A DNA stretch of 64,000 nt from Bacillota bacterium (GCA_018435125.1 JAHDNZ010000036.1:31014-95013), one strand, 5' to 3'. Positions 2 through 18,385 are shown, numbered from the stretch's first letter. The notes: generated by a model from the sequence alone, not told the origin. A program made the numbers and translations.

Positions 2-523
2 GCCATAGAAGACCTTAAAGATCTGATTTTTAAAGAATGCGGCCCCGAAGCTATTGCCGATATTAAAAACGCCTCCGAAAGTTTAAATGAAATACGGCAG
101 TTTACTGATATCTTTCTCAAGATACTAGGCGTTTTGGCTTTTTTTGCTGTAGTTGTCAGTTCAATTGGGATACTCAGTATTATGCTGGTAAATATCTTGG
201 AACGCACACGAGAAATAGGTATAAGACGTTCTTTGGGAACTAGTCAAAGAGCTGTCTTTTTTCAAATACTAATTGAATCAATGGTTCTTTCTTTAGGTGG
301 TGGTATATTGGGGGTAATCTTGGCCTTTATAATCACCTGTCTGTTCAATGTCTCTAATATCTTTGCTGTCTTTAACGAAATTTTTGCCTTACCAAATTTG
401 GGATTCAACATCGAAGCAGTTTTGGTGTCCTTAGCTCTAAGTTGTGTTGTCGGTGGTCTTTTTGGCATCTACCCTGCCTACCAAGCTGCTAAACTACCAC
501 CGGTTGAAGCCTTACAAGAATAA
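2..523 (+). CDS. ABC transporter permease, FtsX/MacB-type, C-terminal part (5' end lies outside window)
   Basis: Open frame runs from window edge with no stop. C-terminal 4-TM FtsX-like sequence with ERTREIGIRRSLG motif typical of MacB/FtsX permeases. Followed in operon by HlyD and ABC ATPase genes. Confidence 0.7.
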   Translation, partial: AIEDLKDLIFKECGPEAIADIKNASESLNEIRQFTDIFLKILGVLAFFAVVVSSIGILSIMLVNILERTREIGIRRSLGTSQRAVFFQILIESMVLSLGGGILGVILAFIITCLFNVSNIFAVFNEIFALPNLGFNIEAVLVSLALSCVVGGLFGIYPAYQAAKLPPVEALQE

Positions 524-542
524 TAAGGTTAGGAGGATAATA

Positions 543-1838
543 ATGCCCAAAGATAAGCCTATAATCAAAGAAAAGCCACATAGTAAAAAAACCCAGCGTG
601 AGCTGGGCCTAACCTGGTTTGTCCTTATTATTTTGGCCTTTTTAATCGGTGTCCCGGCTTATATATTTTTACCTAAGCATAAAACCTATAAGCTGGCCAA
701 TTATACCTACGCTACCGTGGGTGAAGCAACTTTTCGCGAGCTTATTCGGGGAACCGGCTCCTTAAAACCTCAAATCGGTCTTGAGATAACCAATAAATAT
801 AAAGGCATAGTTAAATCAGTCTCAGTTGAGTCTCTTTCTGATGTAACCAAAGGTGATCTCCTGCTTAAGATAGACTCACCCGAACTAAACAATAGCCGAA
901 AAGAACAAGAAGAACTTTTAGTCAAGGCTCAAACCGAACTGGAAAAAGTACTGATCGATAGGGAGCTGGAGCTGCAAAAACTTAACTGGTCAATCAGAGA
1001 ACAGCAAAAGGTAGTAAATGATAACCAAGACACACTTGAAGAGAAAGAACTGATGTATAAATTAGGTACTGTCAGTCAAAAAAGTTTAGAGGAAGCCAAA
1101 CTTAATGTGTTAAACAGTCAAGAAGAATTAGCTATGCGTGAAAAAAACCTAGCCAAAGTCGAAATCACTACCTCACTTGCTGTCGATACAGCTAACAAAC
1201 AAATAAAAACCATTACCGAAAAAATCCACGAGATCGAAAAAAGCATCCGAGAAAACACTTATACTGCCCCCATCACCGGTAAAGTCCTTGAAGTTTTCGT
1301 AAAACCGAGTTCGGAAATAAACGCCGGAACAACTCTCTTAAAAATAGTCAGTGTGGATGATCCTTATGTGGAAATAAAAATTGCCTCCCAAGATGCTGAA
1401 CGCATCGAAGAAGGTTTGCCTGCTCTGTTAAAAATAGCCGGACGCTCTCACCATGGAGAAGTTGCTAAACTCTCTTATGCCACTAGTCTAGAGCAAGGCA
1501 TTCCCTACCTATTGGCAGAAATTGTTTTTATAAACAATCCGGGTTTTATTCTACCCCATACCGAGGTTCAAGTAGAGATTGAAACTTCAAAAAGAGACCA
1601 GGTAGTATGTCTACCCCGCGGACCCTTTTTATCAAGCGGACAAAGTATGTTTGTCTATAAAATCGAAGGGGCTAAAGCATACCGTACTGATATAAAGTAC
1701 GGTGGATATGATGGTAACCTCATTGAAATCAAAACCGGTCTAAATCCCGGTGATAAAATTATCACCAGTTCTTATGAGGCTTTCAAGGATGAAAAAGAAA
1801 TCATTTTAAATCCTGAAGGAGGCAGAGCAGATGATTGA
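543..1838 (+). CDS. HlyD-family membrane fusion protein (periplasmic adaptor of tripartite efflux pump)
   Basis: ATG at 543 is preceded by AGGAGG at 531-536. One N-terminal TM helix, a long coiled-coil segment and a C-terminal beta-barrel-like region. Operon position between permease and ATPase. The ORF-track start at 444 is rejected because it overlaps the permease and has no RBS. Confidence 0.75.
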   Translation: MPKDKPIIKEKPHSKKTQRELGLTWFVLIILAFLIGVPAYIFLPKHKTYKLANYTYATVGEATFRELIRGTGSLKPQIGLEITNKYKGIVKSVSVESLSDVTKGDLLLKIDSPELNNSRKEQEELLVKAQTELEKVLIDRELELQKLNWSIREQQKVVNDNQDTLEEKELMYKLGTVSQKSLEEAKLNVLNSQEELAMREKNLAKVEITTSLAVDTANKQIKTITEKIHEIEKSIRENTYTAPITGKVLEVFVKPSSEINAGTTLLKIVSVDDPYVEIKIASQDAERIEEGLPALLKIAGRSHHGEVAKLSYATSLEQGIPYLLAEIVFINNPGFILPHTEVQVEIETSKRDQVVCLPRGPFLSSGQSMFVYKIEGAKAYRTDIKYGGYDGNLIEIKTGLNPGDKIITSSYEAFKDEKEIILNPEGGRADD

Positions 1839-2556
1839 ACTTAAGGACATTAAGAAGATTTATCAGTTAGGCCATAACAAGATTGAGGCCTTAGGCGGAG
1901 TTTCTTTGAAGATCAACCGCGGAGAAATGCTGGCTGTTATGGGTCCTTCCGGCTCCGGAAAATCAACTTTACTCCATATTCTAGGTTGTCTGGATCTCCC
2001 GGAAAGTGGTCAATATTTGCTTGAAGATACTGATATTACAAACCTCAGTGATAAAGAACTATCTCGTATTCGCAATGAGCACTTTGGCTTTGTATTTCAG
2101 GCCTATAATCTGCTTCCAGAGCTAAAAGCCTGGGAAAATGTAGCTTTACCGATGGTAATTAACCATGTTAAAAAAGCTGAACGTAAAGAACGTGCTGTAG
2201 CCCTGCTGCATAAAGTTGGCCTAAAAGAGCGTCTGAATCACTTCCCCAACCAGCTCTCCGGCGGTGAACAGCAAAGAGTAGCTATTGCCAGAGCTTTAGC
2301 TAATGATCCGGACCTCATTTTGGGTGATGAACCCACGGGTAACCTCTCTACTGTTCAATCTGACGAAATCTTAGAGATGCTTTGCCAGTTAAATGAAGAA
2401 GGCGTAACTGTAGTTCTGGTTACTCACGATTCAAATGTCGGAGCCAAAGCTAAAAGATTGGTAACACTTCAAGATGGTTTATTAGTACGTGATGTCCCTA
2501 TTGAAAAACGCCACTCTGCAGAGTACATTACAACCTTGTTGCAAGCTGCCAATTAA
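1831..2556 (+). CDS. ABC transporter ATP-binding protein (MacB/LolD-type ATPase)
   Basis: Walker [13 protein letters not shown] signature [15 protein letters not shown], Walker [13 protein letters not shown]-loop THD. GGAGG RBS 8 nt upstream. 8-nt overlap with the HlyD stop. Confidence 0.9.
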
Positions 2557-2582
2557 AACAACTACTAACGGAGGTTTGGCTT

Positions 2583-3659
2583 ATGAAAAAAGCTTATCAG
2601 CTAGTATCTTTAATCTTCACTGTTGTCTTTCTTTTCTCGGCGATTGCCTTTTCGGAGGTAAAGCCTCTTTCCCTTTCAGAGTTTACTCAGCTGGTATTAA
2701 ATAATAGCCCTGAATTGAAAAAGACTAAGATCACCTTGGAAATAAAAGAGATTGACTATACCAAAGCAAAATATCAATCCCATAACCTAGCCTTAAAAAC
2801 TCTTAATGAAAAAGAAACTACTCTCTCTTTGGCTAAAGAAACAGTTGCTTCTACTAAAACACAGGTTATCCTAGATGCTAGTGAACAGCTCCTAAGTTTT
2901 TTGGATGCTAAAGCTAATTTACTGGAAAAAGAATTGCTCCTTGTAAAAAGTCAAAGAGATCTTACCTTATTCGAGTTTAGATTTGAAAAAGGTTTAATTT
3001 CAAAATCTGAACTTGAAAGCCATAAAGAACAAGTCAATCAAAACGAACAAGGCAAAAAGCAAGCAGAATACAGTTTAAAACTTCAAGTTATGAAGCTCAA
3101 CCACTTAGCCGGTCTACCTCTAGAAGATGAACTTGAGTTAGATATACCTCTCCTACCCCTACCTAAATTACCTGATAAAGATGAGCTTTACAAGGTTTTA
3201 CTCCAAGGAAATACTGCTCTAAAGCAATTGAAAAGCCAAATGGATGAAGCATCTCTGGCTTTAGAACTGCTTCATCTCCAACATGAAGCCGCCTTGACCA
3301 TAAGAGAAAAAGAGCTCCAACTAGAGGAATTGCAGCTTGATTTTAAAACTAAAGAAAGTGAAATTCTCTTTTTAGCTGAACAAGAATATGCTAACCTTTT
3401 GGAACAACTAAGAAGAACCGAATCCTTTCTAAAAGAAATAACCGCTTCCCTCTCTAAAGTAACAGAAGTTACAGAGCAGTATAAGTTAGGTCTAATTGCC
3501 CAAAATGAGCTGGAAGAAGCAAAATCCCAGGTTAAACTAACAGAATTAAAGGCTCAAAAAGGGGTTTTTGCCCTTACCATTGCACTTGGACATTTAGGGC
3601 TCCTTCCTGAAAGCTCTTCTTTAGATAATTTTTCCCTAGCAGGTGGGCCTAATGACTAA
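2583..3659 (+). CDS. TolC-family outer membrane efflux protein (short)
   Basis: Signal peptide (MKKAYQLVSLIFTVVFLFSAIAFS). Extensive coiled-coil/alpha-helical repeat character typical of outer membrane efflux proteins. C-terminal ALTIALGHLGLL resembles the TolC repeat ending. GGAGG RBS. Confidence 0.55.
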   Translation: MKKAYQLVSLIFTVVFLFSAIAFSEVKPLSLSEFTQLVLNNSPELKKTKITLEIKEIDYTKAKYQSHNLALKTLNEKETTLSLAKETVASTKTQVILDASEQLLSFLDAKANLLEKELLLVKSQRDLTLFEFRFEKGLISKSELESHKEQVNQNEQGKKQAEYSLKLQVMKLNHLAGLPLEDELELDIPLLPLPKLPDKDELYKVLLQGNTALKQLKSQMDEASLALELLHLQHEAALTIREKELQLEELQLDFKTKESEILFLAEQEYANLLEQLRRTESFLKEITASLSKVTEVTEQYKLGLIAQNELEEAKSQVKLTELKAQKGVFALTIALGHLGLLPESSSLDNFSLAGGPND

Positions 3660-4923
3660 ATTAAAACCCCAATCAATTCTTAGCTTTACAATAGTTGTTT
3701 TAATTTGTTTTTTGTTATTTCCAGGTTCCAAAATCCTCGCTCTTACCTTTCCCGAAGCATTTAACCTGGCCAAAAGTAATTCTAAGGGGCAGCTTAGTCA
3801 ACTTGAAACCGAAATAGCTCGACTCTCTCAAGCTCCAACTTCATTTATAGGTAAACTGTTAGCCACTACTGAGATTAACCTAAAAGCAGATACCTCGGGC
3901 AGTAAAGATAGTACTAACCTAAGTTTATCCGCCTTAAGCCAGGCCGATAATTTAACCCTGGCTTCAATCACCTATAACCCTCTGACTTCCGGGATTTCTT
4001 TTGCTCTATCCATACAACTCTATCCCCTAAAAACCAACGCCTCCTTAGCCAAACAAAAGCTTTCCCCAGATGAACTGGAAATAAAAATCCACACAGCCAG
4101 ATTGTTTTTTGCGGTATTTATTGGCCGCCTTGAAGTACCTTTAATAGAAAAAGACTGTCAGCTAAAAGAAGAGCATTTATCCTTACAGAAAGAAAAATTT
4201 TCTTTAGGTTTAATCTCTTTTGCGGAGGTAAAAAATGCCGCTAAGAATTCGAGTACTCTGCAAACGGAACTGAAATTAGCTAGAGAAAAACTAGTCAAAG
4301 ATGAAAATGCTTTAAAAAAACTGCTCGGGCTGTCTAACTTAAATGATCTTGACTTACAATTAGAACAGAATTGGCCACATATAGAGCAACTAGAGATTAA
4401 TCCTGAGCTTATAGCGGCCTTAGATCTACACCTTTTACAAGCCCAATCCGAATTAAGCCAGCTGGAAAAACAAAAAAAACCGCAAGTTTTTGCCAGCTTA
4501 AATCTCAATCATTTACCAAAAAACCAAAATTTTTTAACTCAGATTAGTTTTAGTCACAATCTTTATAAACCTCAACATACAAAACAGATAGCTCTTGCTA
4601 AACTAGAAGTTACAAAGCAAGAAATTCTTCTTAACGAAAAAAAAGAGGCTTTTTATGAGGAGGTTAAGGAAGCCCTAAACAGTTATAAAAAGGCTCAAGA
4701 GACCTGGCAAAATGCCGCATCTTCCCTTGCAGAAACCACTGAACTACTCGATTTAGCCAATACAGGTGCTTCTTTGGGTATCATATCTGAAGGAGAAATT
4801 CAAGAAATCGCTCTCGAATATGAGTGGGCTAAGGTTAAGGTAAGTAAAACTGCCTTAGATTGTCTACTTAGTTACTTTAATCTGCAAAAATATTCTGCTT
4901 CTCTTCCAGAGCTTAGCCTGTAA
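3652..4923 (+). CDS. TolC-family outer membrane efflux protein (second tandem copy)
   Basis: ATG at 3652 with AGGTGG just upstream. The track's GTG at 3643 sits inside that RBS. Signal peptide, helical repeat composition. Overlaps the previous gene's end, so the two are translationally coupled. Confidence 0.5.
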   Translation: MTKLKPQSILSFTIVVLICFLLFPGSKILALTFPEAFNLAKSNSKGQLSQLETEIARLSQAPTSFIGKLLATTEINLKADTSGSKDSTNLSLSALSQADNLTLASITYNPLTSGISFALSIQLYPLKTNASLAKQKLSPDELEIKIHTARLFFAVFIGRLEVPLIEKDCQLKEEHLSLQKEKFSLGLISFAEVKNAAKNSSTLQTELKLAREKLVKDENALKKLLGLSNLNDLDLQLEQNWPHIEQLEINPELIAALDLHLLQAQSELSQLEKQKKPQVFASLNLNHLPKNQNFLTQISFSHNLYKPQHTKQIALAKLEVTKQEILLNEKKEAFYEEVKEALNSYKKAQETWQNAASSLAETTELLDLANTGASLGIISEGEIQEIALEYEWAKVKVSKTALDCLLSYFNLQKYSASLPELSL

Positions 4924-6980: not shown

Positions 6981-7057
6981 CGGAGTGTGGCTCAGTTTGG
7001 TAGAGCGCTGCGTTCGGGACGCAGAGGCCCGGGGTTCAAATCCCCGCACTCCGACCA
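6981..7057 (+). tRNA. tRNA-Pro (anticodon CGG)
   Basis: Cloverleaf by eye. Acceptor CGGAGTG/CACTCCG, D-arm GCTC..GAGC, anticodon stem CTGCG/CGCAG with loop TTCGGGA (CGG, G37), T-arm CGGGG TTCAAAT CCCCG, encoded CCA. Confidence 0.9.
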
Positions 7058-7633: not shown

Positions 7634-8150
7634 CTACTGTTTTAATCTGGAATACTGGTCATAGATCATGTGTGTCTCCATGTGGTCTTTGCAGTATTGG
7701 TACTCCGAAAACCGATTACATCCTATAGCTTTACCGGGTCTTAAAGCTTGTTTAAGCACATTGAAGAAGGAGTAGACCAACGTCTCTATCTTGCCGAGTA
7801 TATTCAGAATCTGACCATACATCCCATTCATCATATCTTCTCTTAATTAACCCTTCCAAAACTTTACCATTACTCCTTACCCATGATAAAAAATTCTTTA
7901 GTTCGACAGCAGCTGTCTTACCAGACTTTATAATCTTCCACATGTCCGACCTATCTATAATGTTTCCTATTCCAATATTAAATACAAAACTAACAATGGC
8001 GTCAAACTCCTGATGTTTTAGATCTACATTAATGGTCTCAAACAAGTCATTAGGTTCCTTTACTCTACTTTGAAGATCCTTCGTGAATAAATCCTTAGCA
8101 GCTTCAGGTGTAATACCGCGGGCGGAAACCCACTCACGCTGTATAACCAC
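7634..8150 (-). pseudogene. Phage-type lysozyme (GH24/Phage_lysozyme family) gene disrupted by a frameshift
   Basis: ORF 7752-8150 contains the QEFDAIVSFVFNIGIGN and GLIKRR motifs of phage lysozymes. The C-terminal continuation lies in another frame (7634-7834). No functional full-length frame. Confidence 0.55.
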
Positions 8151-8321: not shown

Positions 8322-8909
8322 ATGAAAAAGCCTTTTGTTATCAGCATTTCTGGCATATCTGGCAGCGGTAAAACCACAATCGCTAACGCGCTGAAGAAAC
8401 GGGTTGCAAATACTGAAGTCATTAACTTCGATAATATTTCGGGAGATTTGCCCGGCCAAGATTACTGCGAATGGTCGGAATCAGGAGCAGACTGCAACGA
8501 ATGGATACTTACTCCAATAATTGATGAAATAGAGCGCTTATGCTCCGATCCGCTTGAATATATTGTTCTTGATTATCCCTTTGGGACAGCTCACCGTAAG
8601 GTTGGAGCATATGTAGATATTTCTGTTTGGATAGATATACCGCTTGATATATCACTTGCACGACGTATACTGCGTGACTTTACACGCTGCTCAAAAATAC
8701 GCCATCCACTAAAAGGACATGTAGCGGAAGAAGTATCATCATATCTTGATTATTACCTTGCTCGACATAGGGACACATATTTACGCCATATTGAAACAAT
8801 TAGACCATTTGTCGATTTAATTGTTGACGGTACAAATACGCCAGAAGAAATTACAGATGAGATATTGTCCTATATCAATACCCGTAACCATTTACGATGC
8901 CCTCATTGA
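8322..8909 (+). CDS. P-loop NTPase / small-molecule (nucleoside-type) kinase family protein
   Basis: N-terminal Walker A ISGISGSGKTT. About 195 aa. Noticeably higher GC than flanks. First gene of a tightly packed 4-gene cassette. Confidence 0.5.
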   Translation: MKKPFVISISGISGSGKTTIANALKKRVANTEVINFDNISGDLPGQDYCEWSESGADCNEWILTPIIDEIERLCSDPLEYIVLDYPFGTAHRKVGAYVDISVWIDIPLDISLARRILRDFTRCSKIRHPLKGHVAEEVSSYLDYYLARHRDTYLRHIETIRPFVDLIVDGTNTPEEITDEILSYINTRNHLRCPH

Positions 8910-9480
8910 TGAAATCAACGACCCCGTCTGCGACCCGGTACTGCTAAGAGAATATATGGACAAATGGGACGGCGAAGTATTCATTGAAGTACTGCAGTTT
9001 TCGCCGGACAAGACAGTTTTAGAAGTAGGCATTGGAACAGGGCGGCTTGCGGTGCGCATTTGCGGTAAATGCGAACGTTTCACCGGCATTGATATATCAC
9101 CGAAAACCATTGAGAGAGCAAAAGAAAACCTCCGGGGTTTTAATAACGTTTCTCTTATTTGCGGCAACTTTCTTACTTATCAGTTTAATGAGAGATTTGA
9201 TATAATCTACTCATCTCTCACTTTTATGCACATTCAGAATAAGCGAGCGGCAATTCAGAGAGCAGCAATCCTTCTTAATCCCGGTGGTCGGTTTGTATTG
9301 TCTATTGATAAAAACCAGCAGATGGAAATTGATTATGCAAGTGGCTATGGTAGTCGGAAAATTGTTGTTTATCCCGACACACCGGAGGAAATCACCGCTT
9401 TAATTACCGAAGCTGGATTAAATATCGAGAAACAATTTGAAACCGAGTTTGCTTTGATTATCACTGCAAGGAAAGGATGA
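8857..9480 (+). CDS. Class I SAM-dependent methyltransferase
   Basis: Motif I VLEVGIGTGRLA plus post-I acidic residue. Start is ambiguous: TTG 8821, ATG 8857 or ATG 8956. The 5' end overlaps the kinase gene in another frame. Confidence 0.55.
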   Translation: MRYCPISIPVTIYDALIDEINDPVCDPVLLREYMDKWDGEVFIEVLQFSPDKTVLEVGIGTGRLAVRICGKCERFTGIDISPKTIERAKENLRGFNNVSLICGNFLTYQFNERFDIIYSSLTFMHIQNKRAAIQRAAILLNPGGRFVLSIDKNQQMEIDYASGYGSRKIVVYPDTPEEITALITEAGLNIEKQFETEFALIITARKG

Positions 9481-10079
9481 TAAAAACCATGCATCTTGAA
9501 ATCAAGCCTCTAACCCCCGAACTTGCTGCTGATTTCTTTGACTTCTTCGAAAATCGAGCGTTCACAGATAATTCCCCATATCGGTGTTATTGCCAGTTCT
9601 ATCAAATGACCAAGGAACAGGAGAAAGCAGCGTTCGACAAAGTAGACGGGCCTGATATCGGTCGCGTGGCTCGAAAAGTAGCCGAGCGACAGATCGATTC
9701 AGGCATCCTGCAGGGATATCTTGCGTTTGCTGACGGCGTGACTATCGGCTGGTGCAACGCGAACGACAAAGCGAACTTTCCCATAGAATCGTGTACCGGT
9801 GAGCGTTTTTACGCGCCAGCCAAAAAGCGAGAAAAGGCCGTGGTGTGTTTCGAAATTGCCCCGGAATTTCGCGGGAAGGGTGTCGCCACCGCTCTTTTGC
9901 TGCGGGTCGTTGCCGACGCAAAAGCCGAAGGCTATATCGCCATCGAGGGTTTCCCCGTTGTGCGCAACAAACGATATGAATGGGATAACGCCGGCCCCAT
10001 TCGGTTATACGAAAAGGTCGGGTTTATAAAAGTAGCGGAAACGGAAAAAAATGCGGTCATGCGAAAGGAATTAAGATAA
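9477..10079 (+). CDS. GNAT family N-acetyltransferase
   Basis: Acetyl-CoA binding motif VCFEIAPEFRGKGVATALL. ATGA overlap with the methyltransferase stop. Higher-GC cassette. Confidence 0.7.
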   Translation: MIKTMHLEIKPLTPELAADFFDFFENRAFTDNSPYRCYCQFYQMTKEQEKAAFDKVDGPDIGRVARKVAERQIDSGILQGYLAFADGVTIGWCNANDKANFPIESCTGERFYAPAKKREKAVVCFEIAPEFRGKGVATALLLRVVADAKAEGYIAIEGFPVVRNKRYEWDNAGPIRLYEKVGFIKVAETEKNAVMRKELR

Positions 10080-10528
10080 TGAAATACGAATTTGATGCAG
10101 AAATCAAACGGCTTGAGGGTAAAATCCAGTGGAGCGTCTTTTATTTTCCCGAATCTGCTGTAGACTGTTTTGGCTCAAAGGGTAACATTCCTGTCAAAAT
10201 CATGGTGGATGGACACCCCTTTGAACACACGCTCTTGAGTTCTCGAAACGGACATTATCTCGTTTACAACGAATTTATTCGCCGCGCTGTCGGCAAAGAA
10301 ATGGGTGACAGTGTACACGTTACTTTGGAGAAAGACGAACAACCGAGAATTTTTACGGTTCCGGCTTATCTCGAAACGATTCTCAGGGATGGAGGCGTTT
10401 TGGAGACCTTTCTGAAACAGCCGGATTATTTGAAGCGCGAGCAAATCAACAAAATCGAATTGGCTAAGAAAGAAGAAACCAAGGCGAATCGGATTAAAAA
10501 GCTAATTACAGAGTTGGGAGATATCTAA
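10079..10528 (+). CDS. DUF1905 / YdeI-like domain protein
   Basis: TAATG overlap with the GNAT gene. Sequence pattern (KIQWSVFYFP...GNIPVKIMVDGHPFEHTLL) resembles the DUF1905 beta-barrel domain often fused or adjacent to YdeI/OmdA. Confidence 0.45.
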   Translation: MKYEFDAEIKRLEGKIQWSVFYFPESAVDCFGSKGNIPVKIMVDGHPFEHTLLSSRNGHYLVYNEFIRRAVGKEMGDSVHVTLEKDEQPRIFTVPAYLETILRDGGVLETFLKQPDYLKREQINKIELAKKEETKANRIKKLITELGDI

Positions 10529-10985: not shown

Positions 10986-11025
10986 CCCCTGCTAGAAGTG
11001 CAGGGGTATTTGTTATTTATTTATT
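10986..11025. terminator. Bidirectional Rho-independent terminator
   Basis: CCCCTGC tagaagt GCAGGGG hairpin (10986-11006) with a T-rich tract on the plus side and TTCTTTTT on the minus side. Lies between convergent units. Confidence 0.7.
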
Positions 11026-11767
11026 CCGTGCTTTCAAAACGCTCATTCATAATTAAATTTCTACAGTAAGTATATTCATCATCCCCGCAACCTTGCAAAA
11101 TTATCACATCTTCGCTATATGACTTTACACTCCAAAAAATCCCTTGATCTTTTATTGAACAAGATCCGGTATGAAAATTAGAAGAATCGACATCAGGTAT
11201 AATTACATCTTCACCCAGAAAGGAATAGAACCCACAATATGGTTCACTATTGTCTTGATAGTTTCTAATTCGAAAATATTGTCGTCCTCCGAATAGTCCT
11301 TTATCACAAGAAACAGTAACAGATGCTCCGCAGTAAATGTTTTCATCCTTGTTTCGAAGTAGAAAAACAAACTCCAGCTTATTGGTATTCATTGTAAAGA
11401 ACATCTCATCTTCAGATACCGTTGGCATATATCTATCAGGAGCTGCCAAACAGATTATGTCTTTTCTTAAATACGCTGATAAATCAACAGTCTGAAAACT
11501 TCGATTAAGTCTTTGTTTTAGCTTGAAATTATTACCAGAAGCTTCTCCAAGTGAATTAATAAATGCATATCCTGTAGCTGCTTCACTTTGATAGCGTTCA
11601 CAAATGCCGATCAGTTTATGTTCGGTACTATCTCCAATATATAATGCTGCTCCGAGAATATCATTGTCCAAATTATATAGTTCAAAAACAAATTGACGAG
11701 TTATTACTAGCTCTCTATTAGAAGATGAATACACCCCATATGGTATTGTGTGATTCATTTTTCTCAC
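11021..11767 (-). CDS. Hypothetical cytoplasmic Cys-rich protein (about 248 aa), no recognisable domain
   Basis: AGGAGGTGA RBS 5 nt upstream of ATG. No signal peptide. Several Cys residues in the C-terminal half. Island context. Confidence 0.5.
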   Translation of the reverse strand: MRKMNHTIPYGVYSSSNRELVITRQFVFELYNLDNDILGAALYIGDSTEHKLIGICERYQSEAATGYAFINSLGEASGNNFKLKQRLNRSFQTVDLSAYLRKDIICLAAPDRYMPTVSEDEMFFTMNTNKLEFVFLLRNKDENIYCGASVTVSCDKGLFGGRQYFRIRNYQDNSEPYCGFYSFLGEDVIIPDVDSSNFHTGSCSIKDQGIFWSVKSYSEDVIILQGCGDDEYTYCRNLIMNERFESTE

Positions 11768-12251
11768 CTCCTAGCAACAAATATCTAGAAATTTGCTCTT
11801 TACAAACTAAATAGTCTTGGTTTTCCCTTCTTGTCCAGCTTTTTACTTTGCTACAACTAATAGTTATGTTTTTGCACAAGTAATCTTTCCAATATTAGTT
11901 CAATAAAAGATGGTCTTAACAAGTATAAAACAGCATTAAGATAAGCTAACACCTTAGCTAAATTTCCATCAACCTAGTTTAGCTTTTCTACCATCTTCGT
12001 TTAGTAACTGACGTGGATGTTAATTTTCTTAAAATAGAGAACTCTAATGTTTCTTGCCATGAATTAGACAGTTGAGTTCGTCCCCTTGCCTATTTCCTAA
12101 AAACTCAATGTTTCGGTTTGAACAGGTTTAGCTAATTAAGGGTATTCATTTCCATCTTCTTTCTATAAACAACTTTTAGGCAGGAATATACATTCCTTTA
12201 TCTAAAGATCAATATGGTACATTTTTACCAGCAAACAAGGAGTTGAATTCC

Positions 12252-12881
12252 ATGGATATCAGTGGCCTTTTATCTTTGACATATATGTTAGCATATCTAG
12301 AAATCAAAAACCCTCAGAATAAACAGCTAAATAATATGTTTACTTCTTTATCTAAAACTCGGATTGCAGTAGTTGGTGCAATCTCAGGGTTTTTGGTGCC
12401 ACTGGCTATATGTCTGCCCGCTTTATTGTATTTAGGAGCTGGTTTTTTATATACAATTATGGCTGAAACTCTAATCCCTGGAATAACAGGATTTCAAGGC
12501 GAACCCTTTACAAACATATTTACGCAAAACCTTAGTTTTTTTAGCCAGATACTGGTTTTAATTCTAAAATATACAGCTCTGCCATCAATATTAATGGGTT
12601 TATGTGATATTACTTTGCGTCACAGATTTTTTAATAACCCCCAAAATAATGTATGGCCGTGGCTTTACAAACATTGTGCAGCCCCTATTTCTGCTTTTTT
12701 TATTATTATATCTATTTTAACATGGTCCTCTCGGAAAGCGATGTTTGGCATAGCCGGCTTGTTAGTTATCAACAGTCTTCCAGCTGTTTTTTTGGGATTA
12801 CTATACCGAGGTATTCTGCTTGCAACACTAGACAAGCAATTACTCATAATAACCAAATTTAAAAACCTTAGGTCTAGTTAG
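12252..12881 (+). CDS. Hypothetical polytopic membrane protein
   Basis: AAGGAG 10 nt upstream of ATG 12252. The TTG at 12243 in the track is too close to the RBS. Five to six predicted hydrophobic helices. Confidence 0.5.
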   Translation: MDISGLLSLTYMLAYLEIKNPQNKQLNNMFTSLSKTRIAVVGAISGFLVPLAICLPALLYLGAGFLYTIMAETLIPGITGFQGEPFTNIFTQNLSFFSQILVLILKYTALPSILMGLCDITLRHRFFNNPQNNVWPWLYKHCAAPISAFFIIISILTWSSRKAMFGIAGLLVINSLPAVFLGLLYRGILLATLDKQLLIITKFKNLRSS

Positions 12882-13186
12882 AACTCAGTTAACCATTTTC
12901 ACTAATATGCATACCAACTAATACTAAACTGAGAGCTTCTCCTTATAAGAGTTGGTAACTAAATTGTTATCGTCTTGATTGTGTGTAAGTTTTCAAATTA
13001 TCTGACTTAATCTTTGGACTATGTTCCTAGCACGTCTTTATTCATTGTTTAACTGAAAAAAGAAGTGTAATCTTCTATCATTTGACCTTCGGTGATTGTT
13101 GCGATTGCTGCTTTCTTTCTTAAGATTGATGAGACTGCAAATATCGGTAAGACCATGTCCAAAATGTCTTTAAAAAAGTAGCTTCC

Positions 13187-13225
13187 CCCTATTACAGGGA
13201 AAAGCTACTTTATTAATATTTAAAG
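13187..13225. terminator. Rho-independent terminator (serves the small minus-strand peptide gene; bidirectional shape)
   Basis: AAAAAAGTAGCTTCCCC ctattaca GGGAAAAGCTACTTTATTAATATTT. Confidence 0.6.
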
Positions 13226-13242
13226 AGGGATTTTACCCTGCT

Positions 13243-13344
13243 TTACCAACCGCATCCGCCGCCGTTCATAGTCATAATGACCAAAAGAATCAGTATTAAA
13301 AACAAGCCTGCTGCTTCTTGGCCATTTGAAGCCTTATCTACCAT
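13243..13344 (-). CDS. Small hydrophobic peptide, 33 aa (MVDKASNGQEAAGLFLILILLVIMTMNGGGCGW), YjcZ-like
   Basis: Below the ORF-track cutoff, found by eye. GGGAGG RBS 8 nt upstream of ATG 13344. The terminator hairpin lies 20 nt past the stop. Architecture is a hydrophobic core with a Gly/Cys-rich tail, as in YjcZ-family sporulation peptides. Confidence 0.45.
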   Translation of the reverse strand: MVDKASNGQEAAGLFLILILLVIMTMNGGGCGW

Positions 13345-13597
13345 AGCTGATCCTCCCTTCTAGAAAGGTTACTATAACTTATGCTGCGTTTTCAAAATCG
13401 CCATGAACTATTTAACTCATCTTATTGTTTTTTTAAAACCTGCCATCGAGTTCTAGAAGAGATTACCGGATTTCTAAAACTGAAGTTAGTACCTTTAATG
13501 TTCTGCTGATTTTCTCAAGACCTTTAACCTTGAAAAAACACAACTTTTGCAGGTCAAATTGTTTTTATGTCCAAATCCATCTACAGGAGGGAGCCAA

Positions 13598-14422
13598 ATG
13601 AAGCTAGCAGAGATAGTTGTGGAAAATGTAAGGAGTTTTAAAAAACTATTAAAAATTGACTTTACCGATCACTACACCGGTTTACCTAATGATCGTTTGG
13701 TTATTGTAGGTACTAATGCCTCTGGTAAAACTACACTTTTAGAAATAACTATTTCACTCTTAAAAGCTTTTTATCATGAGCAAGATTCTCTCTATAAGGA
13801 ACTTAGCTCAGCCGGAGTAGCTACCAAGGTGGTTTTTCTAGATCAAAACGATAACCGGCTTGCTCTTGAACTTAAAGATGGCAGGCTTTCACTAGAAGGT
13901 AAGAGTGAGCTTTTACCCTTTTATTTGTATTTCCCGGCGGAGCGCTATTTTTCTGAGCCAGCTCAATCAGAGCCAATAAAAATAAACCCTTGGGGCTATG
14001 AGTATAAAAACGGAGAAGAATACTTTACTAACTATTTAGATAATAGCTTTTCTGAGTTAGCCACCCGTTTTTTTTCAGGACGTATACTGGCTAAAACAGA
14101 TGATCAGTACACACTATCGGCTTCTGCCAACGATCCCACCCCGATACCATTAAAAAGACTACCTTCTGGCGAAAAGCAAGCCTTAATTTTGCTTACGATC
14201 ATTGCTAAGCATCTTAAAAGGAGATCGCTGGTGATGATTGATGAATTTGAACTTAGCCTTCATCCTACAGCTCAAAGAAAGCTTTACTATCTTCTCAGTG
14301 CTTATCTTAAAGAGAGAGATTCGCAACTAATTGTGGCCACTCATTCTCTAGAAATTGTCCGTGCATCCCTGGAAACAGAAGTTTTTAGTCTAGACGAAAT
14401 CTTAGGGGGGCTAAAGACATGA
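13598..14422 (+). CDS. AAA_21/ABC-type ATPase (AriA/AbiLi-like), short form, about 274 aa
   Basis: GGAGGG RBS 6 nt before ATG 13598. RecF/SMC-like N-terminal strand MKLAEIVVENVRSFKK, Walker A GTNASGKTT, signature-like LPSGEKQAL, Walker B/H-loop VMIDEFELSLHP (the DEPE..LHP hallmark of AAA_21). Confidence 0.65.
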   Translation: MKLAEIVVENVRSFKKLLKIDFTDHYTGLPNDRLVIVGTNASGKTTLLEITISLLKAFYHEQDSLYKELSSAGVATKVVFLDQNDNRLALELKDGRLSLEGKSELLPFYLYFPAERYFSEPAQSEPIKINPWGYEYKNGEEYFTNYLDNSFSELATRFFSGRILAKTDDQYTLSASANDPTPIPLKRLPSGEKQALILLTIIAKHLKRRSLVMIDEFELSLHPTAQRKLYYLLSAYLKERDSQLIVATHSLEIVRASLETEVFSLDEILGGLKT

Positions 14423-15273
14423 GCTACTTATCATTAGATCAACTGCTCCTTAGAATCCGCTCTGGGAAGGGACTAGCTATAGTCATTGAAGGCATTAAAA
14501 ACGGTGATGATGAGTGGGTATACTCCCAGTGGTTTGGTAATTTAGCTCATTTAGTAACTTTTTACCCCCAGGATGGTTATAGCCGTGTCTATGATGCGGT
14601 TGAAAATCTCAGAAATAAAAGCCCTCACAAACTTATTGCCGGCATTATCGATCGTGACTTCGCAACTGAAATTGAAGTTAAAGCACAGTTTGAAGCAGAT
14701 TATGCGCAACATGTCTATCGCACTAAACGTTATACCTTAGAAAATTATCTTTTAGAACCGGAAGGTTGGCTAGAGATAGCCTCTCTTTTTTGGCGTCATA
14801 AACATCCTGTGGGTTTTCGAACTTTGGAAGAATGCAGCCAAACTATTGAGTTGGTTTTTAAATCATTTTTACCTGCTGCAGCTTATAATTGGCTTGTCTG
14901 GGATTTAGGGCAAAAATACGGGCCCAAATATTATCTGAATTATAAAGACACTCCTAATCTAGATCCGGAAAAACTTTATTTTGATCTTCGTATCTACTGC
15001 CAAAGAGAAGGTCTGCCTAGTCCTGATGAATATGAATTAAGACTTAATCTCCTTCGAAGGAAAAAAGAGCTCTGGCATCAAAAGGTTAGTGGCAAAATGG
15101 TTTTTAATTATCTGATCGAAAACATTCCGGTTCCTAGAAGCCGCCCGGATAAACATCTTTTTATAAACTATTATGTATCCAGAACGGAAGCTCCAAAAGA
15201 GCTAAACCGCCTGGTTAATTTTCTGATCACTAAATATCTTAAGGAAGCATCTCTTGCCAAGAGTGCAATCTAG
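14419..15273 (+). CDS. DUF4435/Toprim-like protein (AriB/OLD-C-terminal-like), putative nuclease partner
   Basis: ATGA overlap with the ATPase stop. Acidic motifs VIEGIKNGDDEWVY and GIIDRDF are compatible with the Toprim E...DxD pattern of DUF4435. About 284 aa, matching the typical size of that family. Confidence 0.45.
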   Translation: MSYLSLDQLLLRIRSGKGLAIVIEGIKNGDDEWVYSQWFGNLAHLVTFYPQDGYSRVYDAVENLRNKSPHKLIAGIIDRDFATEIEVKAQFEADYAQHVYRTKRYTLENYLLEPEGWLEIASLFWRHKHPVGFRTLEECSQTIELVFKSFLPAAAYNWLVWDLGQKYGPKYYLNYKDTPNLDPEKLYFDLRIYCQREGLPSPDEYELRLNLLRRKKELWHQKVSGKMVFNYLIENIPVPRSRPDKHLFINYYVSRTEAPKELNRLVNFLITKYLKEASLAKSAI

Positions 15274-16411
15274 AAGGTTCGCCATCTAAAAATACACTGT
15301 AAAGGTTTTGATTTGCCATTTGCCAGGTTACTATATCATCATCTAGCTGCAGTTCGCCTTTTTCGGCAATCGAATAGGTTTTTCCTGACAACCTTCGCAA
15401 AAATCGCTCTAGATCATTTCTTTCCAGTGTTAATTTGCTAGACTCTCTTGCCCCAACAACCTTGATCATTTCCGAGATTAGCTCAGAGAGAGGACGTTTG
15501 GTAACCGCAACAATCTCTGCCAGTAAAAGACCAAGCCAAAGCCCATCTCCTACACCTAAATGGGGTCTATAGATAATCTCGTCGCCTACAAAAAAATCTG
15601 CCTCTTTTTCTACATCAAGACCTGCTCTTTCTGCCACACGATCAAAAAAGCGTGACCTATCCCAGGCTCTGGCTACACTTTTTAAACTTCCCTGTTCCTT
15701 AAGATAGCGAGCTATTAGAGCTGCTACAACTTCAACCTTTAGAACCTCCCCGGTGTCAGCGACAAATTCAGCCTTTGTACCTAAACTATTAAGTTTTAGG
15801 CCTAAATCAGCTCGTAAACGCAAGACTGATTCTCCTACTGTATTTATAGATATATCTCCATCTGAGCGAACTCGCCATAGACCTTTAAAAGTTATTATCT
15901 GTGAGAGTAAACTAAACAATTTAGCATCTTCCAGTCCACCCAAAGCTAAAAAAATCGACCCTAGCTTATCAGCTGCAGTTTCTCGACGCAGATGCCTAAT
16001 ATACTCTCTTTGTACATCTAAACGCATAGTTTTGCCACGTTTTCTTCTTTCCAAGCGTTTGATTGAAAAAGTGCCTTCAACATAACTTCCGGTTGTAGTT
16101 AAAAAAGTATAACTATTATCTTCTACATAACATGCTGAAGCACTAAGTCTTCTTGCCATAAGAGAGAGTTCTGGCAACAAACATTCTCCGGTTTGGGCTA
16201 CATCAAAACCGTTTGCCAGCAAAAGATCTACAGCTTGCAAAGCATAAACAGGAACCCCAATACTCTTGCTAGGGTCTTTATAACCGACAAGAGCTAATCC
16301 ACTTTGGGTTTTTTCTTTAAGGTAATCGGCCAAGTGTCCCCTTACCATAGGTGTATCATCTACAAGCTTTCCACTTTTAACCAAGTAGCCGTCTTTTACA
16401 GCCTCGTTCAC
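15239..16411 (-). CDS. Hypothetical protein with weak alpha-D-phosphohexomutase-like features (divergent active-site loops)
   Basis: GTG start with an AGGAGG RBS. Its start region overlaps the stop of the upstream CotS-like gene (TAATGTG). RLSASACYVE resembles the TASHNP loop with HNP lost. RSDGDISI resembles the DGDGDR metal loop. The 3' end overlaps the convergent gene by 35 nt. Confidence 0.3.
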   Translation of the reverse strand: MNEAVKDGYLVKSGKLVDDTPMVRGHLADYLKEKTQSGLALVGYKDPSKSIGVPVYALQAVDLLLANGFDVAQTGECLLPELSLMARRLSASACYVEDNSYTFLTTTGSYVEGTFSIKRLERRKRGKTMRLDVQREYIRHLRRETAADKLGSIFLALGGLEDAKLFSLLSQIITFKGLWRVRSDGDISINTVGESVLRLRADLGLKLNSLGTKAEFVADTGEVLKVEVVAALIARYLKEQGSLKSVARAWDRSRFFDRVAERAGLDVEKEADFFVGDEIIYRPHLGVGDGLWLGLLLAEIVAVTKRPLSELISEMIKVVGARESSKLTLERNDLERFLRRLSGKTYSIAEKGELQLDDDIVTWQMANQNLYSVFLDGEPSRLHSWQEMLP

Positions 16412-16412
16412 A

Positions 16413-17456
16413 TTACCACCTCCTAGTAGGTAGCTTAGGGAAAGGTTTCCAGGCTAGGGTTTCTTTAGGTTTGGTTTTTTCATCCACTGCAAGTTTTTTT
16501 TCACTTGCTTCTAATTCAGAATCTACACTAGTGGCATCATTAAAAGCTTCTGGTGCCTCCCCTTGGTAGCTTATTTCTTCTGGGCAAGGCATAAGCGCAT
16601 CAAGCGAACTAGTTTCAATTTCTTCCGGTTTACTAAGTGTCACAGATTCATTCTCGGTAACACTACTTTTTGCAGGTAAGATACTTTGTGTTTCTAAGTA
16701 TTCACTTACAGGTACACTAAGCTCACTTACCGGCAAATTGCTATATTCCTGCGTTGCTATAAGAGGCCATAGCATTTCCATTAACTCCTGTAACTTTTCC
16801 AAAGATGGCTCAACAGTGTCCTTTTTTGGTCCTATTTGTCCTAAAAGAATAGCACTATCCCAAATTAATTGTTCAGCCTGGACTAACTCCGTAGTGTTTA
16901 CAGGCAAGACCTCCTTATATTTTTGCAACACAAATTCTCTCGTTTTTTCATTGGCGCAATCGTAGAGAAGATGGGCTAAACTTAAGAGAGGATTTTCTAC
17001 CCGCAGATTCTCAAAAGCTCCCAGAGTCAATTCTCCGTATCTACCTACATATAAAGAATCGGGCATAATGTGAATCGAAAGCACATTACCATGAATCTCA
17101 AAAAGTGCAAGCTTATGGAGTCTGGCTAGCAATTTAGCTGCACGTTCCAAATCGAGCAAATTGGTTAAATCCAGAGCTCTTCCTTGAGGTTGATCGACAA
17201 GATAATAATAATTATCTAAAAGATAACCATTATCTGCTCCTTTATAAGGCAAAACCACCTTTACTAAGCCTGTTTTTGCAAGTTGAAGAGCTCGCTTTTG
17301 AGCCTCGTTAAAATCGCCTTTTTCCCAGGTTTTAAGTAAACGATTGCCACGTGATGTCTCCCATAAATTGCCTTCATATCTATAGACTTCAACTTGCCAG
17401 TAGGCTGCTGCCTTGCTTACCTCGTTATAGAGACGCAATTCCTCTGCAAAGTTCAT
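16413..17456 (-). CDS. CotS-family (spore-coat kinase-like, phosphotransferase fold) protein
   Basis: GGGAGGAAGG RBS. N-terminal YWQVEVYRYEGNLWE and a kinase-like core with an HxD-type region IHGNVLSIHIMPD, as in CotS/YutH-like proteins. Confidence 0.45.
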   Translation of the reverse strand: MNFAEELRLYNEVSKAAAYWQVEVYRYEGNLWETSRGNRLLKTWEKGDFNEAQKRALQLAKTGLVKVVLPYKGADNGYLLDNYYYLVDQPQGRALDLTNLLDLERAAKLLARLHKLALFEIHGNVLSIHIMPDSLYVGRYGELTLGAFENLRVENPLLSLAHLLYDCANEKTREFVLQKYKEVLPVNTTELVQAEQLIWDSAILLGQIGPKKDTVEPSLEKLQELMEMLWPLIATQEYSNLPVSELSVPVSEYLETQSILPAKSSVTENESVTLSKPEEIETSSLDALMPCPEEISYQGEAPEAFNDATSVDSELEASEKKLAVDEKTKPKETLAWKPFPKLPTRRW

Positions 17457-17576: not shown

Positions 17577-18335
17577 TTACTTTTTGATGCTTTGCCTTAG
17601 AATCTCTCTTTTGGCAATATTTAAAAATTGAGTATTTGTAGGACAACAATTACTGGCTAAACTAGTAGGAAGTATCGAAAGAATATTCCTACTATTTGTC
17701 TTCCAGGCAGAATGCAATGCGCTACGGATAGCAGCTTCTACATTAACAGGTGAAGTATGATATTTTTTAGCTAAATTAGGATAAAGAGACTTAGTTAGTC
17801 CATCTATAAGATAAGCTTTGTTGCTTAATATTAAAAGCAAAGCTTCTTTGAGATAACTGTGGCCTTTTAACTGACTCTTAATCCCTATGTTTTTCAAGAA
17901 CTCTTCTACGCAGTATGTTAGTGTATGATCATCGACTACTATACCTATCAGACTTTTATCAAGGACAATCTCTTCTTTAAAGGCACAAACCTCTCTGATA
18001 GTTTTTTCTAAGGCAGTTAAATAAAAGGGCTTTACTAAACAATAGCTAGCACCCTTTTTTATAGCTGTTTGTAAAATTTCTTCTTTGGAAAAAGCAGTGA
18101 TTACTAAAACCTTAGGTAGTTCGCTGCTTAAAGTATCCAATACCTCTAGTCCGTCTAATATGGGTAAACCCAGATCTAGAATTAAAAGTTCCGGTCTTAG
18201 TTCTCTTACTTTTTTAACTGCTTCTCTACCATCATGACCTACCCCGATTACCTCAAAATCAGGCTGAAAGGAAAGATACTGCACCATGATGTCACAAAGA
18301 GCATGATTTTTATCAACTACTAAAATAGAGACCAT
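17577..18335 (-). CDS. spo0A: Sporulation master regulator Spo0A (receiver domain plus Spo0A_C DNA-binding domain)
   Basis: Receiver domain with conserved Asp residues (VVDKN...LILDLGLP). C-terminal Spo0A-specific motifs LKGHSYLKEAL, LTKSLYPNLAKKYHTSPVNVEAAIRSALHSAW and CPTNTQFL. Start set at ATG 18335 (AAGGGGG RBS) rather than the track's 18368. Confidence 0.8.
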   Translation of the reverse strand: MVSILVVDKNHALCDIMVQYLSFQPDFEVIGVGHDGREAVKKVRELRPELLILDLGLPILDGLEVLDTLSSELPKVLVITAFSKEEILQTAIKKGASYCLVKPFYLTALEKTIREVCAFKEEIVLDKSLIGIVVDDHTLTYCVEEFLKNIGIKSQLKGHSYLKEALLLILSNKAYLIDGLTKSLYPNLAKKYHTSPVNVEAAIRSALHSAWKTNSRNILSILPTSLASNCCPTNTQFLNIAKREILRQSIKK

Positions 18336-18385
18336 AGATAACCCCCTTAATTTGAAACTAAAGTCCAATCAGATTGTTTGAGCTG

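Follow-up and report, generated by a model that had tools for sequence, protein, structure and literature searches.

The stretch of DNA analysed here (the window) comprises 64,000 nucleotides from a Bacillota bacterium and carries two overlapping genes on its plus strand, the first for a short ATPase (gene 1) and the second for a protein with a DUF4435/Toprim domain (gene 2). The features considered below are given with coordinates that are counted from the first nucleotide of the window.

6981-7057: tRNA-Pro gene, 6.5 kb from the pair
13585-13593, plus strand: Shine-Dalgarno-like sequence AGGAGGGAG, read from the sequence, which ends 4 nt ahead of the gene 1 ATG
13598-14422, plus strand: gene 1, ATPase ORF of 274 aa with an ATG start (the longest ORF begins at TTG 13547)
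14419-14422, plus strand: ATGA stop/start overlap, read from the sequence, which couples genes 1 and 2
14419-15273, plus strand: gene 2, ORF of 284 aa for a predicted DUF4435/AriB-like Toprim nuclease
15239-15273, no strand assigned: 35-nt convergent overlap between the 3' ends of gene 2 and the PGM/GlmM-like gene, taken from the ORF coordinates
15239-16411, minus strand: PGM/GlmM-like gene, the terminal gene of the spo0A block

Both ORFs and their ATGA overlap lie where the initial annotation had placed them, and every motif that it quoted (GTNASGKTT, LPSGEKQAL, VMIDEFELSLHP, VIEGIKNGDDEWVY and GIIDRDF) is found in the ORF translations. Within the overlap, the TGA of gene 1 occupies positions 14420-14422 and the ATG of gene 2 occupies positions 14419-14421. 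We assign the start of gene 1 to ATG 13598 rather than to TTG 13547 because AGGAGGGAG precedes the former codon and because all close homologues begin with MKLAEIVV. The ~55 nt directly upstream of this ATG are near-identical in the closest relative (L001). Overlapping or abutting junctions between the two genes are present in nearly all related loci, and a convergent overlap of 35-47 nt between gene 2 and the PGM-like gene recurs among relatives. The ATPase gene is located immediately upstream of the nuclease gene in 35 of the 35 related loci checked, and therefore the pairing is not a chance arrangement. Catalytic residues are invariant or nearly so across alignments of the related proteins. 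The two genes are coupled at the level of translation, lie side by side in every case, diverge together and evolve under purifying selection. Scans of the pair's locus with Rfam models and for promoters and terminators yielded nothing specific, with promoter-like sites occurring at the level of shuffled controls. A sub-threshold match to an sRNA at positions 13171-13269 was rejected, as it coincides with the terminator of a small-peptide gene.

The protein encoded by gene 1 matches the Pfam families AAA_15 and AAA_21 with 81.4 and 74.2 bits, respectively (cut-offs 32.1 and 27). Its top PADLOC model is AriA (6.6e-24), and AbiLi and many PtuA models also match. Its motifs include a Walker A sequence at G38-T46 (GTNASGKT; K44), FPxxR (R116), an LPSGEKQ signature at 189-194, Walker B residues D215-E216, SLHPT and H249, all of which are invariant in homologue alignments. 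NCBIfam returned only sub-threshold PtuA/MAD3 matches, and the PHROGs collection returned unnamed families for gene 1 and none for gene 2. In the AlphaFold2 model of the protein (pLDDT 88.5), nothing but an ABC head is seen, with a short loop of low confidence at residues ~113-160, and the structural neighbours of the model are the heads of PtuA, SMC, Rad50 and AriA. Judging from its motifs and its modelled fold, gene 1 encodes a catalytically intact ABC-type ATPase that has been cut down to its nucleotide-binding head, with ATPase activity being predicted.

Such a head could in principle belong to a transporter nucleotide-binding domain (NBD) or to a DNA-repair ATPase of the SMC/RecF type that is functionally unrelated to gene 2. 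Gene 1 does score weakly with ABC_tran (20.6 bits) and SMC_N (37.3 bits), transporter NBDs appear among its low-scoring NCBIfam and PDB matches, and SMC and Rad50 heads are among the structural neighbours just mentioned. However, both of these Pfam scores lie below their cut-offs (25 and 40, respectively), whereas those for AAA_15 and AAA_21 lie far above theirs, and the linkage to DUF4435 is obligate in the 35 loci. The initial annotation had also considered that gene 1 might cluster with transporter NBDs beside a cognate permease. No permease is found among the neighbours of the pair, and the sole set of transporter genes in the window is located 11 kb upstream and has its own NBD. On account of the sub-cut-off ABC_tran score and the lack of a nearby cognate permease, a transporter-NBD identity was rejected, and a role that is functionally separate from gene 2 is highly improbable overall.

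The initial annotation had called the ATPase unusually short and devoid of a coiled-coil insertion, and comparison with AriA bears this out (274 versus 464 aa). Its close homologues form a tiny clade of eight clusters (271-276 aa; 48-99% identity), beyond which scores fall steeply before ATPases of 425-465 aa are reached. When the family profile was compared with PDB sequences, AriA was the best match (E 2.6e-15), and profile positions 27-250 aligned to AriA residues 22-426 with two blocks present in AriA alone. One of these blocks spans ~40 aa (~AriA 81-120) and the other spans ~135 aa (~AriA 161-295). The smaller block corresponds to IS1, whose R116/R119 loops line the central pore and are needed for sensing of Ocr (PMC11464382). 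The larger block is the helical/coiled-coil domain, and these helical domains join three AriA dimers into a hexameric propeller (PARIS structure paper, PMC11464382). ATPases from related pairs in other phyla are 354-402 aa in length and carry ~90-100 extra residues in two inserts, so the 274-aa form is, on these sequence comparisons, a derived variant produced by deletion. Some precedent for short AriA-like proteins exists, since PADLOC already includes an AriA model of 253 positions. Another short AAA_21 ATPase (P0106; 293 aa) has no DUF4435 partner and was set aside as irrelevant.

Gene 2 encodes an N-terminal Toprim domain followed by a C-terminal helical domain (~136-284). Its Pfam match to DUF4435 (31.4 bits; cut-off 27) covers residues 30-124 alone. 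The AAA_15/21 and DUF4435/Toprim assignments of the initial annotation are recovered above curated cut-offs for both proteins. AriB is the top PADLOC model (8.8e-10), and the only others to match are AriAB and, marginally, GajA. The acidic residues of the protein are E24, D30/D31, D78, D80 and E108, the last of which resides in TLENY. In an alignment of 25 homologues (29-91% identity), E24, G25, D30, D31, Q51, G53, D78, D80 and T106-L-E108-N-Y110 are invariant or near-invariant. An alignment of 58 sequences retains E24, G25, D80, E108 and G225 as invariant positions, with D31, D78, R79, N109 and Y110 conserved in at least 90%. In AriB, the two-metal Toprim cluster is composed of E26, D30, D88, E90 and E122 (PMC11464382, PMC12409363). 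The LENY motif of gene 2 (E108) pairs with AriB E122 in an HMM alignment, whereas the other acidic-residue equivalences are suggested by motif order. For D78/D80 and AriB D88/E90, the HMM alignment looks to be ~4 residues out of register.

The AlphaFold2 model of gene 2 (pLDDT 89) was compared with PDB structures by Foldseek, and the sole significant matches were AriB chains (E 1.7e-6; TM 0.45). At the sequence level the two proteins are 13-15% identical. A phmmer search of the PDB with gene 2 found nothing relevant and did not find AriB, and a profile of the gene 2 subclade likewise missed AriB in the PDB. This profile did produce a weak match to DUF2059/PA0856 (E 0.009), which was judged to be noise. 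Only a broadened profile reaches AriB, and then weakly (E 0.0023), and therefore the case for kinship with AriB rests mainly on Pfam and on fold comparison. Judging from these data, gene 2 encodes a Toprim enzyme with the AriB fold and a full two-metal acidic site. Against 1.84 billion representative proteins, the gene 2 profile produced 352 matches at E<=1e-3 and 62 when the threshold was tightened to E<=1e-30. Numbers this low mark the family as a small, deep branch of DUF4435.

Among the closest known systems is PARIS (AriA/AriB), which is encoded by a P4 satellite of E. coli B185 and belongs to class 4 of the OLD family (PDB 8UX9, 8V45-8V49). The phenotype that characterises PARIS is phage defence set off by an anti-restriction protein, in which the effector, once freed, cleaves tRNA. 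The published rule for detecting PARIS requires an adjacent AAA_15 match of at least 32 bits or AAA_21 match of at least 27 bits, together with a DUF4435 match of at least 27 bits (Rousset et al. 2022, PMC9122126). Under this rule, the three Pfam scores given above identify the pair described here, which is homologous to PARIS, as a member. The PARIS-type two-gene architecture that had been suggested for the locus is also supported by the best PADLOC models for both proteins and by the Foldseek match to AriB. Rules of the kind used by DefenseFinder and PADLOC would already call this pair PARIS, so the basic identification is not new. Both systems have a nuclease with a Toprim domain, a C-terminal helical domain and a two-metal acidic cluster, and K44, D215-E216, LPSGEKQ and H249 of gene 1 match AriA motifs (K39 in Walker A and E393 in Walker B). 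Both of the AriA blocks described above are missing, and the AriB helix that contacts AriA carries R28/R31, whereas its putative counterpart in gene 2 is acidic (DDEW), such that the interface with the ATPase may differ from that of AriB. Together with the low identity between gene 2 and AriB, the missing inserts uphold the earlier suggestion that the pair represents a divergent variant and not PARIS in its canonical form.

The closest known systems also include other ATPase-nuclease combinations. AbiL likewise pairs an ABC ATPase with a Toprim protein (PMC11464382), and the AbiL-like label given in the initial annotation holds for gene 1, for which the PADLOC AbiLi model gives a full-length match (residues 3-258; E 2.7e-20). 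It does not hold for gene 2, which has no match to PADLOC AbiLii models at E<=1, and membership in AbiL was rejected on this basis. The PtuA ATPases of Septu and retrons differ in having an HNH nuclease as partner and a long helical insert. In class 1-2 OLD proteins (P2 Old, TsOLD, GajA), the ATPase domain is joined to the Toprim domain in a single chain that carries a dimerisation insert. Assignment to these classes was dismissed, given that the pair encodes two separate proteins and is not matched by Pfam Toprim_OLD.

The genomic setting of the pair departs from what had been proposed for it, namely a defence island with phage debris beside a tRNA. Following the tRNA-Pro gene in the direction of the pair are a truncated endolysin-like ORF, a kinase, a SAM methyltransferase, a GNAT protein, a DUF1905/YdeI protein, two orphan ORFs and a gene for a 33-aa peptide. 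The endolysin-like ORF is the sole phage-like item near the pair, no integrase was found among the pair's neighbours in the window, and defence models searched against these neighbours gave no match except to a generic methyltransferase domain. Downstream and convergent to the pair are the PGM/GlmM-like gene, an unknown gene of 347 aa, spo0A, rsmB, a Zn-peptidase gene, fmt, def, priA and metK. The GC content of the pair (0.39) is like that of this core block and of the genome, and the variable stretch upstream ranges from 0.335 to 0.475.

Related Bacillota loci come from uncultured metagenome-assembled genomes recovered from digesters and fermenters (UBA4881, UBA5301, DTU065 and others). In all 15 relatives whose locus covers the downstream flank, the pair adjoins the block that runs from the PGM-like gene through the unknown gene, spo0A and rsmB to priA, whereas the upstream flank is variable. 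No relative was found with the spo0A/PGM-like block but without the pair, and a metagenome scan yielded four loci, each of which carries the pair. The PGM-like family is itself confined to the Bacillota clade that has the pair. Protein identities to the window, given for L001 and then for more distant loci, are as follows.

ATPase: 85%; 50-57%
DUF4435 protein: 91%; 64-71%
Spo0A: 84%; 50-56%
RsmB: 88%; 65-66%
Fmt: 89%; 62-65%

Values of dN/dS against the closest relative are 0.24 for the ATPase, 0.105 for the nuclease and 0.07-0.15 for neighbouring genes. Because its position is constant, its GC content is genome-like and its divergence keeps pace with that of the core genes, the pair is a fixed chromosomal resident and not island cargo, and the proposal of a defence island or mobile element was therefore discarded. 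The pair is vertically inherited at this locus in the Bacillota lineage without island turnover, and it has remained next to the spo0A block over a family-level evolutionary span in a diderm, spore-forming lineage. This again differs from E. coli PARIS, which resides on a satellite or in a prophage hotspot.

A locus this stable raises the prospect that the pair has been domesticated for a lineage-specific core function, in which an RNase M5-like Toprim enzyme would process or survey cellular rRNA, tRNA or DNA structure under the control of the ATPase. Observations above that fit such a role are the constant position, the genome-like GC content, a nuclease dN/dS equal to the level of the core neighbours and a nuclease identity that tracks those of RsmB and Fmt. 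The active site of AriB resembles that of RNase M5 (PMC12409363), a likeness that lends this idea further support. However, members of the subclade are few and unevenly spread among phyla (the 62 representative clusters at E<=1e-30 noted above), and the behaviour of related pairs elsewhere is also relevant to its evaluation.

Pairs composed of a DUF4435 protein and an ATPase of ~370 aa, all uncharacterised, were found in Acidobacteriota, Chloroflexota, Myxococcota, Armatimonadota and Heliomicrobium. Their DUF4435 proteins fall in the subclade of gene 2 (29-37% full-length identity and identical invariant residues) and their ATPases in the family of gene 1 (~30% identity). The gene junctions overlap as they do in the Bacillota pair, and a difference lies in the longer ATPases described above. 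In five Acidobacteriota genomes, the pair has a fixed place in a packed, co-directional string of genes for DUF309, the ATPase, DUF4435, DUF4149, a pseudouridine synthase and a TrxB-like protein, an arrangement that could be read in favour of a housekeeping function. The same pair nevertheless outpaces its flanking genes by far. In one comparison the pair is 48-50% identical when the flanks are 79-93% identical, and in a second one identity reaches 75% for the ATPase and only 46% for the nuclease. This fast divergence, with its apparent signs of partner swapping, counts against housekeeping. The Chloroflexota pairs point in the same direction, as they often adjoin genes for PglX/BREX-like proteins, type IIG and type III methyltransferases, DUF1848 proteins and PIN toxins. 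Six PglX-like proteins were identified among 109 neighbours from 20 loci (best E-value 0). As a separate observation, fixed synteny with core-paced divergence in Bacillota and an operon-like setting in Acidobacteriota are atypical of defence genes.

Disrupted alleles of the nuclease gene also segregate among near-identical Bacillota strains. Gene 2 is interrupted in L051 by a change of GGA to TGA at Gly75 and in L058 by a 1-nt deletion in a run of four T nucleotides, both with an intact ATPase gene, and both may be real or assembly errors. Each of these alleles is separated from an intact allele by one or zero further bases. A third apparent disruption (L022) is an artefact caused by a run of N. 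Knock-outs that affect the nuclease alone fit a dispensable and potentially toxic effector and, if they are not assembly errors, count against a core function. Moreover, the characterised systems that combine an AAA_15/21 ATPase with a Toprim protein are all defence systems (PMC11464382). Considering the evidence on both sides, we view a domesticated housekeeping role as unlikely.

The same disrupted alleles bear on a third explanation, in which the pair is a chromosomal addiction module with toxin-antitoxin-like properties and no current defence role. The ATPase would neutralise a toxic nuclease, and loss of the ATPase alone would be lethal. Disruptions indeed always hit the nuclease with the ATPase intact, never vice versa, and the tight translational coupling places the gene for the neutraliser first. 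The label chosen for AriA by the PDB depositors is 'AriA antitoxin', and Pfam describes AAA_21 as a putative AbiEii toxin or type IV TA system domain. Addiction would also account for the long retention of the pair at one locus. Yet such a module does not prevent the joint loss of both genes, and both are under purifying selection across ~50% protein divergence, while the BREX and restriction-modification neighbours in Chloroflexota point to defence. Toxin-antitoxin logic and abortive-infection defence are, in addition, not mutually exclusive. We therefore consider a purely addictive function to be slightly more doubtful still than a housekeeping one.

An abortive-infection or toxin-like function is the most likely one for these genes, because of the BREX and restriction-modification neighbours, the rapid evolution in Acidobacteriota, the nuclease-only knock-outs and the uniformly defensive character of the known AAA_15/21-Toprim systems. 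Thus, we favour as the probable explanation that the pair is a PARIS-class (OLD class 4-like) system in which an ATPase restrains a Toprim nuclease according to abortive-infection or toxin-antitoxin-like logic, and which has become a chromosomal fixture in this Bacillota lineage. By analogy with AriA/AriB, an ATP-bound head dimer of the ATPase would keep the nuclease inactive until a stress- or phage-derived cue shifts the state of the ATPase and frees its partner. The freed nuclease might then dimerise and cleave a nucleic acid that the cell cannot do without, with tRNA as the likeliest target. Cleavage of tRNA (or of another substrate) would halt translation and growth. Both the tRNA substrate and the release mechanism are proposed from this analogy, and the weak sequence link between gene 2 and AriB makes it a long extrapolation to carry over the substrate or regulation of AriB.

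The architecture of the ATPase also limits how far the analogy can extend. The protein encoded by gene 1 lacks both the pore loops of IS1 and the helical blade domain, and it would therefore be unable to assemble an AriA6:AriB3 propeller or to sense an Ocr-like trigger in a central pore. Sensing would then have to rely on a different part of the head's surface or on the nuclease. A more specific proposal, which we advance only tentatively, is that the pair is a minimal PARIS in which a head-only AriA-like ATPase controls an AriB-like nuclease by means of another oligomeric state and another mode of trigger sensing, possibly after being repurposed.

Interest centres on an ATPase that is reduced to its head and on a pair that is inherited at a fixed chromosomal site. 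The parts that gene 1 lacks are those that, in E. coli PARIS, sense a phage protein and build a 425-kDa complex, and despite their absence the predicted ATPase and nuclease have stayed intact and coupled, and selection still acts on both. An active pair would define the minimal core with which an ABC ATPase can hold back a Toprim nuclease and set it free, and it would reveal that the sensing of triggers can reside elsewhere than in the AriA pore. Systems of this kind are, as a rule, found in islands with fast turnover, and the stable vertical position of the pair is a useful exception. In other phyla, by contrast, sister pairs lie next to BREX genes or evolve fast, and for this reason the subclade offers a natural series in which to follow the fixation or repurposing of an immune module. 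The Bacillota pair could exemplify an immune nuclease module that is moving to, or is already in, a role linked to RNA surveillance or to stress and sporulation.

The nuclease gene of the pair abuts a block of core genes that is convergent with it:

15239–17456 and 17577–18368, minus strand: spo0A, then a 347-aa gene, then a 390-aa PGM/GlmM-like gene, all in the same orientation

The 3ʹ ends of the nuclease gene and the PGM-like gene always overlap, by 35 to 47 nt. The product of the PGM-like gene matches mutase domains in fragments only, and its family (23 clusters, all at least 52% identical) was found only in this Bacillota clade. The 347-aa gene that follows spo0A yields a weak CotS-like match.

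The ATPase gene is oriented divergently from a small gene that carries its own ribosome binding site and terminator:

13243–13344, minus strand: gene for a 33-aa hydrophobic peptide, MVDKASNGQEAAGLFLILILLVIMTMNGGGCGW
13182–13203, minus strand: its terminator-like hairpin

This gene is kept nearly base-for-base in two related loci, L001 (the closest Bacillota relative) and L002, and no match for the peptide was found in NCBIfam.

Farther upstream lies a variable region, which was probably acquired horizontally (9000–10500 and 11000–13000). Relative to a genome GC content of ~0.39–0.40, its first patch, spanning GNAT and DUF1905/YdeI genes, has a GC content of ~0.47, and its second, spanning two orphan ORFs, has ~0.335. 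Beyond this region are a tRNA and the sole phage-like gene of the stretch; no integrase was found. The upstream features, from the variable region outwards, are:

12243–12881, plus strand: orphan ORF for a membrane protein, low-GC patch, also present in L001
11021–11767, minus strand: orphan ORF, low-GC patch
8821–9480: methyltransferase ORF
8322–8909: kinase-like ORF, overlapping the methyltransferase ORF by 89 nt as listed
7752–8150, minus strand: endolysin-like ORF of 132 aa, matching the Phage_lysozyme model at positions 33–125 only
6981–7057: tRNA-Pro, neighbouring the endolysin-like ORF
444–4923: genes for a HlyD-family adaptor, an ABC ATPase and two OEP/TolC-like outer-membrane efflux proteins

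The top NCBIfam match of the endolysin-like ORF is the gene-transfer-agent endolysin BgtA. The TTG start of the methyltransferase ORF is probably over-extended. Its domain matches the MADS mad2 methyltransferase model, but this match is generic and provides no evidence for a MADS system.

Because the OEP/TolC-like genes, HlyD adaptor and ABC ATPase share one genome with Spo0A, the host lineage, known from MAGs only, is suggested to be a diderm, spore-forming member of the Bacillota.

The window pair lacks a defence-island-like setting, whereas the sister pairs of Chloroflexota reside in one. Across seven such loci (L039, L041, L043, L045, L046, L048 and L049), the immediate neighbours of the pair include methyltransferases of very large size, either PglX/BREX-like or type IIG (Eco57I/MmeI-type), as well as N6_N4/type III methylases, DUF1848 and PIN genes.

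In two further related loci, a single mutation disrupts the DUF4435 gene while the ATPase remains intact:

L051, 6788–7645, minus strand: GGA to TGA at invariant Gly75, compared with L052
L058, 7136–7989, minus strand: 1-nt deletion in a T4 run, compared with L059

The affected strains are otherwise at least 99.8% identical to those with intact alleles. The disruptions may be genuine null alleles that segregate among strains, or they may have arisen as errors in assembly.

Acidobacteriota loci (L029, L034, L040, L047 and L023) hold the sister pair in a fixed slot within a co-directional gene string (DUF309–ATPase–DUF4435–DUF4149–pseudouridine synthase–TrxB-like), where the flanking genes diverge far more slowly than the pair. 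Between L040 and L047, the ATPases are 75% identical but the nucleases only 46%, and this gap in sequence identity suggests that alleles or partners have been replaced at a fixed locus.
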